DNA of 32,000 bases from positions 270,001 to 302,000 of the forward strand of contig JAMWCX010000003.1 in NCBI GenBank assembly GCA_023818895.1, in the 5' to 3' direction. Origin of the DNA: Candidatus Omnitrophota bacterium. GTDB taxonomy: Bacteria; Omnitrophota; Gorgyraeia; 2-01-FULL-45-10. The position numbers were made by a program, and so were the translations under genes. The stretch's first letter is position 1. Each line of letters starts with the position of its first letter. The notes under the pieces are model-generated. The model did not search any database. It saw only the letters and a program-made list of their open reading frames with translations, and was not told the origin of the DNA. Below are positions 5,461 to 25,062 of the stretch, one piece after another.

Positions 5461-8046
5461 ATGTTGAATTTCGATAAAATGACGCTGAAGGCGCAAAGCG
5501 CCGTCCAGTCGGCTCTTGATATCGGTCGTCGCTACTCAAATCAGGAAATAGGCCCGGAGCATCTTATTCTGGGGCTTCTCGCTGTAGACGGAAGCATTGC
5601 CGTCTCCATACTCGAAAAGATGGACGTCGATATAGCCGCCTTCAAAAGGGATATAGAGGCCTTGATCGCCCAAAAGCCCAAGGTCGAAGCCTCGGAAAGT
5701 CAGCAATATTTTTCCAGGGACGCCAGAGAGCTGCTCGAAGGGGCCGCACGACAGGCCCACGCTCTTCGCGATGAATATATCAGTGTTGAGCATATCCTTC
5801 TGGCCGCCGCCGAATTTAACCGCAAAGGGGAGCTTGGGGCTATCCTGCGAAAATACGGTATAAATAGAGAGGCTATTCTCAATGTGCTGCGAGAAGTAAG
5901 GGGTTCGCAAACGGTGACAGATCAGAACCCGGAAGATAAATACAACGCTCTCGAAAGATATGGTAGAGACCTTACGAAGCTTGCTCGCGAAGGTAAGCTC
6001 GATCCAGTCATAGGCCGCGATGAGGAGATACGCCGCGCTATCCAGGTGCTTGCCCGCAGGACCAAAAATAATCCGGTTCTCATAGGCGACCCCGGTACGG
6101 GGAAGACCGCTATAGCAGAAGGCCTTGCCAGACGTATAGTAAGCGGTGATGTACCTACGACTCTGAAGAATAAAAGGATAGTGGCGCTTGATATCGGTGC
6201 GCTCGTGGCGGGGGCCAAGTACCGAGGAGAGTTTGAAGACCGGCTTAAAGCGGTATTGAAGGAGATTCAGACAAAAGCTGGAGAGATCATTCTGTTTATC
6301 GATGAGCTCCATACGCTTGTTGGCGCGGGCGGGGCGGAAGGCGCCGTTGATGCCTCAAATATGCTCAAACCGGCTCTTGCGCGCGGTGAGCTACGATGTA
6401 TCGGAGCCACGACGCTGGATGAGTACCGCAAGTATGTGGAGAAGGATAAGGCGCTTGAGCGCAGGTTCCAGCCGATATTTGTAGGCGAGCCTTCGGTGGA
6501 GGATACCATAGCGATATTGCGTGGATTAAAGGAACGCTATGAAATTTACCATGGCGTAAAGATAAAGGACGATGCCTTGGTGAGCGCCGCCGTTCTTTCC
6601 GACCGGTATATATCGGATAGATTTCTGCCGGACAAGGCGATAGATCTTGTTGATGAGGCCGCCGCAAAGCTGCGTATAGAGATAGACAGCCTTCCTACTG
6701 AGCTTGATGAGCTGGAGCGCAAAATAATGCAGTATGAAATAGAGCGCGAAGCGCTTAAAAAGGAAAAAGACGCCTCATCCCGCGAAAGGCTTAAGAAAAT
6801 GGAAGAGGAGCTCGAAGGCCTAAAGAAGAAATCCGCTGAACTTAAGAGCCACTGGGAAAAGGAGAAACAGACCATAGATAGGATCCGCAAGATAAAAGAG
6901 AGGCTGGAGCAGGCCAGACTGGATGAGGAAAGGTTCGAAAAGGAGGCGCGGCTCGACAAAGTCGCGGAGATACGCTATGGAGTGATAAGGGATCTCGAAA
7001 GAGAGCTTGATGCGGAGAATAAGAAGATGCGGGAGATCCAGAACAAGAATAGGATGCTTAAAGAAGAGGTAGATGAGGAGGACATTGCTGAGATAGTATC
7101 AAAATGGACGGGGATACCGGTATCGAAACTGATGGAGGGTGAGAAAGAAAAACTTGTCCATATGGAAGAGCGTCTCAGATCCCGCGTTGTTGGCCAAGAT
7201 GAGGCGGTTACGCTCGTATCCAACGCGGTGCGTCGGTCGCGTTCAGGACTTTCCGACACTAACAGGCCGATAGGCTCGTTTTTATTTCTCGGGCCAACAG
7301 GCGTGGGGAAGACATATCTTGCGAAGACGCTGGCATGGTTTCTTTTTGACGACGAGAACGCCATAGTACGAATAGATATGTCGGAATATATGGAGAAGCA
7401 TTCGGTGTCGCGTCTAATCGGCGCCCCGCCGGGCTATGTGGGATACGAGGAGGGAGGGCAGCTCACTGAGCGAGTGCGGCGCAGGCCGTACTGCGTGATC
7501 CTCTTTGACGAGATAGAGAAGGCGCATCACGATGTATTTAATATACTTTTGCAAATACTTGACGACGGCCGTCTTACCGACGGGCAGGGGCGGGTTGTGA
7601 ATTTCAAAAACACCGTTATTATCATGACCTCCAACATAGGCAGCACCTATTTCCAGGACGATTCCATTTCGAAAGAAGGTTTGAAGCGCGCTGTGCAGGA
7701 TGAGGTGCGCAAACATTTCAGGCCTGAGTTTGTAAACCGACTGGACGAGATAGTCATATTCAATAAATTGTCCGAAAATGATATCGAAAAAATAGTTGAC
7801 CTCCAGCTCAAGGAACTTTCAGAACGCCTTGCATCGCAGGGCATAAAGCTAGAGATCGACAAGAAGGCGCGCGAAAAACTCGCCAAAGAGGGGTTCGACC
7901 CCGACTTCGGCGCCAGGCCGCTTAAACGCTTAATACAGCGGGAAATAGAAGACAAGCTTGCCCTCGAACTTCTCGAAGGTAAGTACAGCGACGGCAGCAA
8001 GGTCACTGTAAGTATCGATCCCAAGAGCGGCAAATTCACCTTATAA
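5461..8046 (+). CDS. clpB: ATP-dependent disaggregase ClpB
   Basis: 861 aa. Clp N domain, two AAA+ modules (Walker A GDPGTGKT and GPTGVGKT), a long coiled-coil middle domain between them, and no ClpP-docking tripeptide seen. Confidence 0.97.
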
Positions 8047-8094
8047 TAACGATCCCAGAAAGCGGTTAGCAACGGGTTTTTAATAAAATAATAG

Positions 8095-8123
8095 TTGACA
8101 AAAATAGTCAGGTATGATATCTT
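8095..8123 (+). promoter_or_regulatory. sigma70-type promoter of the Rrf2-iscSU operon
   Basis: TTGACA (8095..8100), a 17-nt spacer ending in TGa, then TATCTT (8118..8123). The predicted transcription start falls at or within a few nt of ATG 8132. Confidence 0.45.
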
Positions 8124-8131
8124 ATTTACGT

Positions 8132-8572
8132 ATGAAGCTTTCAACGAAATCTACATACGGATTAAGGGCGATGCTTGCGATTGCTATGAAAGATAAGAAT
8201 ACGGCAACGTCTATAAATGATATATCAGGCGCCGAAGGCATATCGGTGGCGTATCTTGAGCAGCTTCTCAACAGGCTCAGAAGGCATGGGCTTGTCGAGA
8301 GCGTCCGTGGTCCAAAAGGCGGTTATATATTATCAAGGCGCCCTTCTGAGATAACCGTCGCTGACATAGTAAAGACGCTCGAAGGCAATATTTATCCGGT
8401 ACACTGTGTATCACCGAAGAACGGCCCTTTGAGCGCCTGCTCTAGAGGAGCGTCATGCGTTCCGAAAATAGTATGGCACAAACTAGCCAGGGCCATAAGC
8501 GATTGTCTTGAATCCATCACCCTGGAAGATCTGTGCGCCGAAGCGATAAGGATTAAACGAAGAAAATCTTAA
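8132..8572 (+). CDS. iscR: Rrf2-family transcriptional regulator (IscR-like)
   Basis: The listed ORF starts at 8114. MKLSTKSTYGLRAM from ATG 8132 is the canonical Rrf2 N-terminus. Winged HTH plus three Cys (HCVSPKNGPLSACSRGASC) as cluster ligands. Directly upstream of iscS-iscU. Confidence 0.85.
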   Translation: MKLSTKSTYGLRAMLAIAMKDKNTATSINDISGAEGISVAYLEQLLNRLRRHGLVESVRGPKGGYILSRRPSEITVADIVKTLEGNIYPVHCVSPKNGPLSACSRGASCVPKIVWHKLARAISDCLESITLEDLCAEAIRIKRRKS

Positions 8573-10907: not shown

Positions 10908-12479
10908 ATGCATCAGGATACTACAATAATTTACATAGGGCTAGCAGGACTGGCAGCGATCTTCTTCTTCGCTCTCGGGTATTTTATAAGGAAGATTCAC
11001 GCCAAAGGCAAAGTCAAAAACGCCGAAGATAAGGCTAGGAAAATTACAGAAGAAGCCAAGGTTGAAGCGGAAAAGATAAGACATGAGGCAGAGCTGCAGG
11101 CGAAAGACCTTCTGCTTAAATTAAGGACGGAATTTGAGAGGGAAACGAAGGACCGGCGGCAGGAACTTATCGTTCTGGAAAAGAGGCTTATACAGAAAGA
11201 GGAGAATCTGGACAGAAAAGTCGATATACTGGAACGAAAGGACAAGGACATTGAAAGGCGCGAACACTCTCTTTCGGATAAAGAGAAGCTCGTTATCTCT
11301 AAAGAAAAGGAACTTGAGAAACTGCTGCAGGAAGAGAAGGAAAGGCTCCAGAGTATATCCGGAATGACTCGCGATGAGGCTAGGCAGCTTCTGTTGAAAA
11401 AGCTGGAAGACGAGGTTAAGCAAGAGGCCGCGCTTATGATAAAAAGGACTGAGGAGGAAGCCAAGGAAAAGGCCGACAAAGAGGCGCGTAAGATAATAGG
11501 ACTTGCGATACAGCGGTGCGCCGCTGATCATACCGTCGAGACAACCGTAAGCGTGGTAAACCTGCCTAATGACGAGATGAAGGGCAGGATAATCGGCCGC
11601 GAGGGTAGGAATATCAGAGCTCTTGAAATTGCTACTGGCATAGACGTCATCATAGACGATACGCCGGAAGCCGTGATACTTTCCGGATTTGATCCGATAA
11701 AGCGCGAGATAGCTAAAATAGCGCTCGAGCGGCTCCTTGAGGACGGGCGTATTCATCCTGGCAGGATCGAGGAGATAGTCGAGAAGGTTAAGAAGGATAT
11801 GGAGAATACCATCCGTGAAGAGGGTGAAAAGGCCCTTTTCGATACCGGTTTACATGGGCTACACCCCGAGATAATCAAACTCCTCGGCAGGCTTAAATAC
11901 AGGACGAGCTACGGCCAAAACGTGTTGCAGCATTCTGTGGAGGTCGCTCATCTTATGGGTGTTATGGCGAGTGAGCTTAAGCTGGATTTTAATCTCGCCA
12001 AACGTATAGGCCTTCTGCATGATATAGGAAAAGCCGTAAGCCATGAAATGGAAGGCACGCATTCAAAACTGGGGGCAGATCTGGCCAGGAAATACGGAGA
12101 AAGCGAAAATATCTGCCATGCGATAGAGGCACATCATCAGGATATAGAACCCAAGACGCTTTTAGCCGTACTTGTCCAGGCGGCCGACTCTATAAGCGCA
12201 ACGCGGCCAGGCGCAAGGCGCGAAACACTTGAAACCTATGTTAAAAGGCTTGAAAAACTCGAAACGATAGCCGATTCCTTCAAAGGAGTCGCCAAGGCGT
12301 ATGCCATACAGGCGGGCAGAGAGATACGAGTTATGGTGCAGCCGGATAAGGTATCAGATGCTCAAGCTGCCGTACTAGCGCGCGATATTACCAAAAAGAT
12401 AGAAGAAGGCCTTGAGTATCCGGGCCAGATCAAAGTGACAGTGGTAAGAGAGACCAGGGCAGTGGAATATGCTAAATAG
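10908..12479 (+). CDS. rny: ribonuclease Y
   Basis: N-terminal TM anchor, a long charged coiled coil, KH domain ([15 protein letters not shown]), HD domain (LLHDIGK...HH). Confidence 0.95.
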
Positions 12480-23412: not shown

Positions 23413-23486
23413 TGACGGGTAGTGTAACGGCAGCACAGCAGACTCTGGATCTGCTTGTCTAGGTTCAAATCCTAGCCCGTCAGCCA
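23413..23486 (+). tRNA. tRNA-Gln (anticodon CUG), CCA encoded
   Basis: Manual cloverleaf. Acceptor tgacggg/cccgtca (U1-A72, G73), D stem gtgt/gcac, anticodon stem gcaga/tctgc with loop ctCTGga, T arm ctagg-ttcaaat-cctag, 3' gCCA. Confidence 0.9.
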
Positions 23487-23633
23487 ATATAAAAAATCCT
23501 CCTGTAGCTTGAGATGCTAGGATTTGAAACAAAATTTGCGCCGACCAACGGGAGGAAAAGGCCTCTGGCCGTAAGCAAATTTTGATGGTCTGAAGCCACC
23601 TCTGGCGGATGAAGACCAAATCCTAGCCAGGCA
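23487..23633 (+). ncRNA. tRNA-linked structured element, copy A (core 23516..23627)
   Basis: About 80% identical in its core to the units after tRNA-Leu. Predicted helices: P1 23516..23525/23618..23627, P2 23530..23539/23575..23584, P3 23587..23591/23613..23617. The 3' strand of P1 copies the T-loop/T-stem segment caaatcctagcc of the adjacent tRNA-Gln. A terminator follows. Confidence 0.45.
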
Positions 23634-23638
23634 ATAAT

Positions 23639-23677
23639 AAAGACTCTACAAGTACTTCTGGGGAAGTCTTTTTATTT
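23639..23677 (+). terminator. probable intrinsic terminator (may also serve the convergent DedA gene)
   Basis: Outer stem aaagact/agtcttt, inner stem acttc(23654..23658)-tggg-gaagt(23663..23667), then cTTTTTaTTT. Located between the converging tRNA-Gln unit and the minus-strand gene. Confidence 0.5.
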
Positions 23678-23685
23678 GCGAATAT

Positions 23686-24393: not shown

Positions 24394-24422
24394 TTGATAT
24401 TTTAAGCCTGCCTCACTATAAT
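24394..24422 (+). promoter_or_regulatory. near-consensus sigma70 promoter of the tRNA-Leu/repeat/tRNA-Glu unit
   Basis: TTGATA (24394..24399), a 17-nt spacer, then TATAAT (24417..24422). 27 nt before tRNA-Leu. Confidence 0.65.
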
Positions 24423-24449: not shown

Positions 24450-24534
24450 GCGGAGATGGTGGAACTGGCAGACACGCATGTTTGAGGGGCATGTGCCGCA
24501 AGGCTTGGGGGTTCAAATCCCCCTCTCCGCACCA
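24450..24534 (+). tRNA. tRNA-Leu (anticodon GAG), CCA encoded
   Basis: 85 nt. Acceptor gcggaga/tctccgc, anticodon stem catgt/gcatg with loop ttGAGgg, long variable arm gcc-gcaa-ggc, T arm ggggg-ttcaaat-ccccc, aCCA. Confidence 0.9.
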
Positions 24535-24678
24535 TGTTGTTTGATAGTAGTAACGGCAGAAGGGATTTGAAGCCAATTTGCGCCGACGAACAGGAGGAAA
24601 AGTCCTCTGGACGTAAGCAAATTGGCCGGTCTGAAGCAAGCTATGCGAGCGGAAGACCAAATCCCCCTCTCCGCACCA
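24535..24678 (+). ncRNA. tRNA-linked structured element, copy B1 (core 24562..24665)
   Basis: Helices: P1 gggattt 24562..24568 / aaatccc 24659..24665; P2 ccaatttgc 24573..24581 / gcaaattgg 24617..24625; inner hairpin caggagg/cctctgg; P3 ggtct 24628..24632 / agacc 24654..24658. Lies inside a tRNA operon. Confidence 0.45.
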
Positions 24679-24822
24679 TGTTGTTTGATAGTAGTAACGG
24701 CAGAAGGGATTTGAAGCCAATTTGCGCCGACGAACAGGAGGAAAAGTCCTCTGGACGTAAGCAAATTGGCCGGTCTGAAGCAAGCTATGCGAGCGGAAGA
24801 CCAAATCCCCCTCTCCGCACCA
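24679..24822 (+). ncRNA. tRNA-linked structured element, copy B2
   Basis: Identical to copy B1, shifted by 144 nt. Followed after 7 nt by tRNA-Glu. Confidence 0.45.
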
Positions 24823-24829
24823 TAAACCT

Positions 24830-24907
24830 GGCCCCATCGTCTAGCCCGGCCTAGGACGTTAGGTTCTCAGCCTAAAGACCGGGGTTCAAATCCCCGTGGG
24901 GCTACCA
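24830..24907 (+). tRNA. tRNA-Glu (anticodon CUC), CCA encoded
   Basis: Acceptor ggcccca/tggggct, D arm gtct-agcccggccta-ggac, anticodon stem ttagg/cctaa with loop ttCTCag, T arm cgggg-ttcaaat-ccccg, aCCA. Confidence 0.9.
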
Positions 24908-25000: not shown

Positions 25001-25051
25001 TTTCGAAAATCGAAAAAAAAATTTCGAAAGCACTTGACAAAACTTTCGAAA
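25001..25051 (+). promoter_or_regulatory. three phased TTTCGAAA palindromes (candidate operator array)
   Basis: Perfect 8-bp palindromes at 25001..25008, 25022..25029 and 25044..25051. Centre-to-centre spacing is 21 and 22 bp. The third lies inside the promoter spacer. Confidence 0.55.
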
Positions 25052-25062
25052 TATGATATATT
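25034..25062 (+). promoter_or_regulatory. sigma70-type promoter of the hspR-like gene
   Basis: TTGACA (25034..25039), a 17-nt spacer, then TATATT (25057..25062). GGAAGGAGGAAG RBS precedes ATG 25087. Confidence 0.6.

Follow-up and report, generated by a model that had tools for sequence, protein, structure and literature searches.

What are the two identical 144-nt units that separate a tRNA-Leu gene from a tRNA-Glu gene in a genome of Candidatus Omnitrophota bacterium (NCBI GenBank assembly GCA_023818895.1), and why does each of them end exactly like the tRNA that precedes them? The stretch of DNA analysed here, called the window, comprises 32,000 nt of contig JAMWCX010000003.1 (positions 270,001 to 302,000 of the forward strand). 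Coordinates without a label refer to the window, and other loci and contigs are denoted by L and a number. A preliminary description, made from the letters alone, had drawn attention to the units and likened them to the repeats of the E. coli tyrT locus. It had seen neither that the unit belongs to a conserved structured RNA family nor that the tail of the unit tracks the upstream tRNA. We incline, with some reserve, to read each unit as a conserved structured RNA of about 120 nt that would be co-transcribed with the tRNAs and released by nucleases, an A-type tRNA-linked repeat. The locus is composed as follows.

24394..24422, plus strand: promoter-like TTGATA-17-TATAAT, 27 nt upstream of tRNA-Leu, 11/12 matches; putative function
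24450..24534, plus strand: tRNA-Leu(GAG), CCA encoded (ARAGORN, Rfam tRNA model)
24535..24678, plus strand: A-type tRNA-linked unit 1, 144 nt (fold, covariance model 141 bits, covariation)
24679..24822, plus strand: A-type unit 2, identical to unit 1; 5' arm of its helix P1 at 24706-24713, tail at 24802-24822
24830..24907, plus strand: tRNA-Glu(CTC), starting 7 nt past unit 2 (ARAGORN)

Tandem Repeats Finder reports 24514-24823 as a repeat of period 144 (2.2 copies, 100% matches, score 620). Both units close with CAAATCCCCCTCTCCGCACCA, which agrees with tRNA-Leu 24514-24534 at 21/21 nt, and CCA ends stand at 24534, 24678 and 24822. The tRNA-Leu has the T-arm GGGGG-TTCAAAT-CCCCC and the acceptor 3' strand TCTCCGC. 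The coordinates, identity and period of the units, the copied tail with its three CCA ends, the near-consensus promoter and the spacing to tRNA-Glu had all been given in the preliminary description, and the sequence, ARAGORN and Tandem Repeats Finder reproduce them to the base. The units begin directly past the CCA of tRNA-Leu and have tRNA-Glu downstream, and thus lie within a tRNA operon. A promoter scan and a simple terminator scan gave no internal call, and the single promoter-like site upstream fits the earlier placement of the units in a tRNA transcription unit. In relatives, the pair of tRNA-Leu and tRNA-Glu is a conserved operon, with units between them or not, and a TATAAT box about 20 nt 5' of tRNA-Leu is also found in L016, L022, L030, L037 and L038. 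The sequence recurs without a difference in another assembly (L001, GCA_023818765.1), and therefore the repeat is real. However, the contig of that assembly starts inside unit 1, and copy numbers in short-read assemblies are lower bounds, so that "two" units means at least two.

Homologues of the unit were sought with a tail-gap-tail pattern (tRNA-Leu tail, 115-145 nt, tail), which gave one genome locus (L002, an uncultured Planctomycetia metagenome-assembled genome) and 17 metagenome loci; at every one of them tRNA-Leu(GAG) is followed by homologous units of 138-153 nt. In a MAFFT alignment analysed with RNAalifold, 13 of 26 predicted pairs show compensatory changes. A five-helix structure was then written by hand and turned into a covariance model, and all matches were re-aligned to it. 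The family comprises 25 distinct homologues on 19 contigs (the window contig and 18 others), which belong to Candidatus Omnitrophota or are unassigned metagenome contigs. In the covariance-model alignment of the 25 distinct units, which is fitted to the structure, standard pairs fill 86.0% of cells; shuffling the columns lowers this share to 69.4%, and sliding the partners by 1-3 columns lowers it to 23-41%. Both sides have changed in 26 of the 38 base pairs, and the covariation score of 0.373 (0.116 in shuffles) was reached by 0 of 500 shuffles. The units diverge widely in sequence and keep their helices: the P2 stem, for example, is GCCAATTTGC/GCAAATTGGC in the window and GCCACGTTTGC/GCAAACGTGGC, GCTCGCGAGC/GCGAGCGAGC or GACAAATTTC/GAAATTTGGC elsewhere. 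Among the non-Watson-Crick cells, 104 are G.A or A.G and none is C.U or U.C; such tandem sheared G.A pairs on the plus strand indicate an RNA of the tRNA strand and not of the opposite one. No Rfam 15 model matched the units, either in the window (gathering score and E <= 10) or in the 17 loci (gathering score), the scans returning tRNAs and one cobalamin riboswitch and nothing else. The unit is therefore a conserved structured RNA family absent from Rfam 15.

Unit 1 has a predicted fold of -51.9 kcal/mol (z -3.6), with the following parts.

24535-24561, plus strand: leader, unpaired, U-rich, about 27 nt
24562-24569, plus strand: P1 5' arm, GGGATTTG
24572-24581, plus strand: P2 5' strand, forming a 10-bp helix with 24617-24626
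24583-24597, plus strand: hairpin P2a, CC-GA-C...G-GA-GG, with tandem G.A
24602-24612, plus strand: hairpin P2b, 4 bp and a triloop
24617-24626, plus strand: P2 3' strand
24628-24658, plus strand: P3, with outer stem, GNA/GNA internal loop, inner stem and triloop
24658-24678, plus strand: tRNA-derived tail, its first 7-8 nt being the P1 3' arm

The closing helix P1 joins an inverted copy of the T-loop, GGGAUUUG, to the 7-8 nt with which the tail begins (CAAAUCCC), the tRNA-derived bases in it being CAAAUCC(C), and it encloses both P2, which carries P2a and P2b, and P3. Read in reverse complement, the T-loop TTCAAATCC gives the motif GGATTTGAA, of which the window has six copies where 0.5 would be expected. 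Three of these copies are the T-loops of the three tRNAs, on the minus strand, and the other three lie in the three units, on the plus strand. The family consensus of P2a is CC-GA-N...N-GA-GG, and the conserved loops of the unit are CGCCGA, GAGGAAAAG and GACAG. The last ~13 nt of the tail (CCUCUCCGCACCA; acceptor 3' strand and ACCA) have no conserved pairing partner in the unit.

An acceptor-like mini-stem of gcgga and tccgc had been proposed in the preliminary description and is not retained here: GCGGA is part of P3, in whose 3' strand and internal loop it falls, and the pairing of P3 covaries. Pairing of the leader with the acceptor 3' strand ("P0") was also tried as an acceptor-like stem and rejected, its duplex energies being no better than those of shuffled leaders (mean z 0.0, n=20 units). 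ARAGORN and the Rfam tRNA model called no cloverleaf in the units, and a decayed second tRNA copy was discarded as an origin of the unit, since the leaders do not resemble the 5' part of their own tRNA in any consistent, colinear way. As a separate observation, the Leu-linked leaders of the window (24550-24561) and L030 contain GTAACGGCAG, a 10-mer equal to the tRNA-Gln D-arm (z 6.7 against shuffles), and the Gln-linked leader of L014 (L014:6461-6500) contains TGTTTGAGGG, which equals the tRNA-Leu anticodon arm and is also a common leader motif, TGTTTGAnnGTAGT; these 10-mers possibly match tRNA arms by chance.

Two simpler accounts of the repeat can be weighed against the family. Under the first, the two copies would be a recent and meaningless slippage product, or an assembly artefact, of an ordinary spacer. 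The copies are indeed 100% identical, most relatives carry a single copy, and the second assembly breaks inside the repeat. However, the unit is conserved and structured in many genomes, with 25 distinct homologues, and is thus no slippage product of the strain-specific kind that the preliminary description had allowed for; most loci have one copy, whereas two are present in L019, L040 and the window and no fewer than three in L025, and tandem copies recur independently in L019, L025 and L040. The duplication is recent and the unit is not, and we regard this account as highly improbable. Under the second, the 48-codon period would encode a small repeat protein, like Tpr of the E. coli tyrT locus, since 144 = 3 x 48 and open reading frames (ORFs) of 106 aa (plus strand) and 157 aa (minus strand) span both units. 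Against it, unit length is divisible by 3 in just 8 of 24 cases, every frame is closed in at least one unit, and the frame used in the window contains a stop codon and indels in L002. A HMMER search against 1.84 billion representative proteins gave chance matches and one spurious ORF over another unit array, three of the five matches being eukaryotic CCCH zinc-finger repeat proteins, again by chance. Coding is thus hardly credible, and the frame analysis of homologues bears out the earlier remark that a convincing coding signal is lacking. A phage or viral origin was also rejected: two interior patterns searched against IMG/VR gave one chance match each, both within coding sequence.

The covariance model revealed a third unit in the window, overlooked in the preliminary description, behind a different tRNA.

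23413..23486, plus strand: tRNA-Gln(CTG), T-arm CTAGG-TTCAAAT-CCTAG
23493..23629, plus strand: third, diverged A-type unit, tRNA-Gln-linked (covariance model 78 bits, E ~2e-19)
23633..23678, plus strand: terminator-like hairpin and U-run, directly past the tRNA-Gln-linked unit (fold)

Its P1 pairs CTAGGATTTG (23517-23526) with CAAATCCTAG (23617-23626), and its tail holds just 12 nt of tRNA-Gln (CAAATCCTAGCC) and diverges beyond. The hairpin at 23633-23678 was not called by the simple terminator scan, and the candidate is therefore weak.

Units stand behind four tRNA types in all, namely Leu, Gln, Glu and Arg. Of eight tRNA/locus combinations, seven have a tail that equals the resident tRNA from T-loop position C56 to the CCA, the exception being the tRNA-Gln unit of the window with its 12 nt kept. 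Several of these loci were found outside the tail-pattern selection: the covariance model gave the Gln-linked units of the window, L014 and L027 and the Glu-linked unit of L025, L039 was reached through synteny of the GlnRS gene, and L040 through the HMMER search with translated units. The unbiased evidence for the tail rule thus consists of seven units (three Gln-linked, one Glu-linked, one linked to a variant tRNA-Leu and two identical Arg-linked ones). The Gln-linked units of L014 and L027 end in the 21 nt of tRNA-Gln, CAAATCCTAGCCCGTCAGCCA, and the Glu-linked unit of L025 ends in CAAATCCCCATGGGGCTACCA, matching its own tRNA-Glu at 20 of 21 nt. The tRNA-Leu(GAG) of L039 is a variant with the T-loop TTCAAGT and the acceptor strand CCCGCGC, and its unit has the end CAAGTCCTGTCCCGCGCACCA and the P1 arm GGACTTG; compared with the unit of L029, the body is 84% identical and the tails differ at 7/21 positions, each tail being 100% identical to its own tRNA. 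In L040, a tRNA-Arg(ACG) with the T-loop TTCGAAT is followed by two identical units that end in CGAATCCTGCTAGCCGCGCCA and have the arm GGATTCG. Within P1, three of eight pairs covary, three covarying T-loop versions exist (AUUUG/CAAAU, ACUUG/CAAGU and AUUCG/CGAAU), and the next pair is G-C behind tRNA-Leu but A-U behind tRNA-Gln and tRNA-Arg. The tail and the P1 arm thus match the upstream tRNA, and the unit bodies are common across tRNA types.

Comparison of the bodies gave the following closest relatives for four units that are not linked to tRNA-Leu.

L027-Gln unit: closest to L026-Leu, body identity 95%
L014-Gln unit: closest to L018-Leu, body identity 92%
L025-Glu unit: closest to L030-Leu, body identity 88%
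window-Gln unit: closest to L023-Leu, body identity 82%

The same four units share 54-77% identity with the Leu-linked unit of their own contig. The cross-type similarity is bounded by GGATTTGAA and CCAAATCC and includes part of the leader. Since the unit bodies are closest to those behind other tRNAs in other genomes, the bodies move between tRNA genes. Two further arrangements were noted beside these. L029:1-1120 is a segmental duplication, with a unit tail at the contig start, tRNA-Glu, and a second tRNA-Leu with a unit 854 nt on, and the downstream sequence is identical after both tails. At L036:6675-6712, a truncated A unit stands behind tRNA-Gln, with CTAGGATTTGAAGCGAGTGAGCGCCGAC fused directly to AGCCA, and looks like an internal deletion.

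The tRNA-linked repeats (TLRs) of E. coli are the closest known parallel. They were first described in 1978 and have no accepted function; there are 22 elements at 10 loci, each repeating at its own 3' end the terminal 18-19 nt of the tRNA or rRNA that precedes it, and a TLR is further defined as standing directly behind a tRNA or rRNA gene within its operon, in one to several copies, and as being transcribed with the tRNA precursor and processed from it (PMC8144298). Hfq/CsrA binding in vitro is known for three of them, and a role as an RNase E or 3'-processing signal has been suggested for the repeat (PMC8144298). In the E. coli tyrT/tyrV loci, we found one 175-nt and three 178-nt elements (3 x 178 nt after tyrV), all four ending in the 19-nt AATCCTTCCCCCACCACCA, which starts in the T-loop; the RtT model (RF00391) scores 133-137 bits on them. 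The RtT consensus has a closing stem formed with the tail, GgGaaGGAU/AUCCuuCcC, and leaves ccaCCACCA single-stranded. A tandem G.A motif has been noted for RtT (10.1101/2020.02.04.933952) and is also visible in the computed fold of the E. coli RNA.

The window units show the defining features of TLRs in place, number and tail: they stand right behind a tRNA of their own operon, in tandem copies, with a tail equal to the tRNA 3' end. They also share the tail-closed design of RtT, and the parallel drawn in the preliminary description holds to this extent: an upstream segment and the tRNA-derived tail form the closing stem, ...CCA stays single-stranded, and a hairpin with tandem G.A pairs is present in both. 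The likeness is architectural only. The Omnitrophota units are shorter (138-153 nt) and come from another phylum, their tail has 21 nt compared with 19 nt in RtT, and their P1 uses the T-loop and 2-5 nt of the T-stem, whereas RtT uses the T-stem and 2-3 acceptor bases. Homology to E. coli RtT was searched in both directions and was undetectable: the RtT model had no match in the window at the gathering score or E <= 10, and when the model of the A units was run on the E. coli locus, it reached no more than 6 bits. The units are thus a second TLR family, sequence-unrelated to that of E. coli and built on the same plan in a distant phylum. A second, unrelated family with the same plan and with covariation means that the plan is under selection and is no enterobacterial quirk. 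The A family differs from the E. coli TLRs in bringing deep covariation, and supplies a testable secondary structure and a covariance model. In addition, a tail and arm that track the tRNA, together with a mobile body, make the origin and role of the tRNA-end copy answerable.

Other known systems resemble the units in part. The E. coli 3'ETS-leuZ is an RNA that is cut from a tRNA precursor by maturation nucleases and acts itself (PMC8144298). However, it is a short unstructured sponge and holds no copy of a tRNA 3' end, whereas the units have a five-helix fold and a tRNA tail.

In the mascRNA of MALAT1 and the t-elements of plant mitochondria, a tRNA-like end recruits tRNA-processing enzymes. 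They share with the units the idea of a tRNA-like end that defines the ends of another RNA; in contrast, the units have neither a cloverleaf nor an acceptor stem, and the 3' strand of the tRNA top half alone is copied.

Integrases that target tRNA genes classically use as their attachment (att) core a repeat that begins in the T-loop and reaches the 3' end of the gene, as Williams is said to have set out in 2002. The direct repeat from T-loop to CCA that flanks an insert behind an intact upstream tRNA resembles such a duplication, and the units might accordingly be the scar of an integrase insertion, with the repeats as attL and attR and the interior almost all deleted. In one relative (the contig of protein P0206, ENA ERZ1426660), genes for a large serine recombinase (Resolvase/Recombinase/Zn_ribbon_recom), DUF2924 and HTH_17 are found, the recombinase about 2 kb downstream of the Gln-Leu-Glu tRNA cluster, and integrative elements thus do use this cluster in some relatives. 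The insert itself argues otherwise. Only 123 nt lie between the repeats, they form a structured RNA that keeps its size and fold across 19 contigs through compensatory changes, and one body stands behind four tRNAs with matching tails, its 5' arm being complementary to the tail. Carrying a tRNA 3' end from Leu to Gln, Glu or Arg would give a chimeric tRNA, and the upstream tRNAs are intact. In addition, a Pfam scan of ten neighbouring ORFs in the window found no integrase or other recombinase, as the preliminary description had said of integrases. We consider a scar of this kind very unlikely.

Other modules occupy the same tRNA spacers. L036 is the relative whose GlnRS is closest (83% identity), and behind its tRNA-Leu stand two 180-nt units (7815-8174) that are identical to each other and belong to a different family. 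They end in AAATCCCCCTCTCCGCACCA, fold strongly (z -4.6) and form their closing stem on the CCCCC of the tail. Since this unrelated family also closes on its tail, the design looks general. A fragment related to it lies upstream of tRNA-Leu in L002 (2950-3040). A rod-like module family, here "B", is closed by its own ends (UCCUACUUCGC.../...GCGAAGUAGA, z -3.8) and was found at the following loci.

L002:2402-2530: B module
L025 6859-7010, minus strand: B module
L016: B module
L033:3765-4119: B module
L036:8176-8579: B module

The B module of L002 ends in a 16-nt copy of a tRNA-Gln variant of the genome itself (CCTTGCCCGTCAGCCA), and that of L025 lies between the last Leu-linked unit and tRNA-Glu and ends in CCCCCTCTCCGCAC. 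In L016, L033 and L036 the module stands between tRNA-Leu and tRNA-Glu and holds an ORF for a GIY-YIG endonuclease of about 96 aa in its inner loop. Further recurrent tRNA-trailer modules were noted in L014, L015, L017, L024, L037 and L039, among them "UUUGAUCCUGAAG...hairpin...UGAAGGACCUUAA", "AAGGGGAAAACGUAGUUUUCCCCUUAUGACGCUCGC" and one closed by AAACGUUYGG/CCAAACGUUU, which in L037 ends in a decayed tRNA-Glu tail (TAAATCCCCATGAGCTACCA); none of them matched Rfam at the gathering score. L024 has copies of the tRNA-Glu tail at +280 and +688. Just past the tRNA-Glu terminator, an orphan inverted fragment of a tRNA 3' end (TGGTAGCTG..GAAGGATTTGAA) occurs in L024 (~11155-11180) and L038 (~6905-6950), where no matching tRNA lies nearby; in L038 it is joined to an apparent decayed A unit on the opposite strand.

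How the units would work can be outlined from these observations. The units would be transcribed inside the tRNA-Leu/tRNA-Glu precursor. Because they end exactly like the tRNA and are followed by the same kind of leader (identical at the junctions 24534/35 and 24678/79), the three ...CCGCACCA ends at 24534, 24678 and 24822 may offer the tRNA 3'-maturation nucleases the same context. The 3'-maturation endo- and exonucleases, together with RNase P at tRNA-Glu, would then release tRNA-Leu, the unit RNAs and tRNA-Glu, and the conserved loops of the stable folded RNA would most likely bind a protein or RNA partner. Units may pass from one tRNA gene to another and copy the resident tRNA anew, beginning at the T-loop, with the T-loop sequence shared by most of these tRNAs (TTCAAATCC) as presumed landing homology, and the two identical copies of the window may have arisen recently by unequal recombination between tails.

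Several points weigh against a released, functional RNA. Its transcription, processing and stability are predictions from sequence, and the pair counts come from a model-fitted alignment, which is biased toward the structure; the independent MAFFT alignment agrees with it in direction. The Leu-linked sample was baited with the tail, and because the search pattern demanded it, conservation of the last 14 nt in Leu-linked units is uninformative. The Gln-linked unit of the window folds intact yet lacks the acceptor/CCA part of the tail, and this part is thus dispensable for keeping the body. Finally, the distribution is patchy. Among six independent loci reached via neighbouring proteins, an A unit follows tRNA-Leu in one (L039); L003, L033, L037 and L038 have none, and L036 carries the other family. 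In L003-L005 and L037 the spacer between tRNA-Leu and tRNA-Glu is unit-free and 25-28 nt long, and L033 and L038 hold other modules. With such patchiness, the RNA is dispensable or accessory. Orthologous loci were also sought through synteny of the YqaA gene, a route that was abandoned as close YqaA homologues lie in unrelated contexts; GlnRS synteny worked.

The same patchiness also speaks for a selfish, non-autonomous mobile cassette that targets the T-loop and 3' end of tRNA genes, and whose fold would serve its own mobilisation or its survival in the transcript and not the host. Presence varies among close relatives, with other module families at the same site, the bodies are common to four tRNA types with tails rebuilt from the resident tRNA, copy number ranges over 1, 2 and at least 3, and the sibling module with the GIY-YIG ORF sits between tRNA-Leu and tRNA-Glu in L016, L033 and L036. 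However, no mobilising protein was found in or beside the window units (ten neighbouring ORFs scanned), empty and filled alleles of one strain were not seen, and the GIY-YIG link concerns a different module and is circumstantial. Moreover, the dense covariation and conserved loops exceed the needs of known small mobile repeats. We hold an essentially selfish cassette to be rather unlikely and prefer the structured, co-transcribed RNA.

A broader and tentative idea, to which we give limited credence, is that the A units, the sibling families and perhaps the E. coli TLRs are a previously unrecognised kind of mobile RNA cassette that homes to tRNA genes via the T-loop. Each insertion would re-copy the tRNA from T-loop to CCA, leaving the tRNA intact and the cassette with a matching closing helix, and an endonuclease of the GIY-YIG type, as in the neighbouring module, might make the initiating break. 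If true, this would account for the likeness between the end of a TLR and that of its tRNA, which has been a puzzle for 45 years.

The remaining genes of the neighbourhood are housekeeping or unassigned: the ten-ORF Pfam scan, which found no integrase, transposase or reverse transcriptase, identified XseA, IspA, Dxs, subunits of an oxoacid:ferredoxin oxidoreductase, a Glu/Gln-type tRNA synthetase, a VTT-domain (YqaA/DedA-like) membrane protein, a MerR regulator and one ORF without a family. The gene order is GlnRS, tRNA-Gln, the YqaA-like gene (minus strand), the tRNA-Leu/Glu operon, MerR, Hsp20 and GroES/GroEL, with three Hsp20 genes in the neighbourhood; GlnRS, Hsp20 and GroES/GroEL were named from database entries or translations. 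NCBI assigns the proteins identical to the YqaA/DedA-like protein and to GlnRS of the window to Candidatus Omnitrophica/Omnitrophota. The 100%-identical database entry of the YqaA-like protein has 204 aa, compared with 206 aa from the listed start codon. The palindrome TTTCGAAA occurs seven times in the window (1.3 expected). Three of the copies (25001, 25022 and 25044) fall within 25001-25051 and surround the -35 box of a promoter-like TTGACA-17-TATATT site (25034-25062). This site precedes both the gene of the MerR family and the Hsp20/GroES/GroEL cluster, and the palindrome is probably the operator of a heat-shock regulator.

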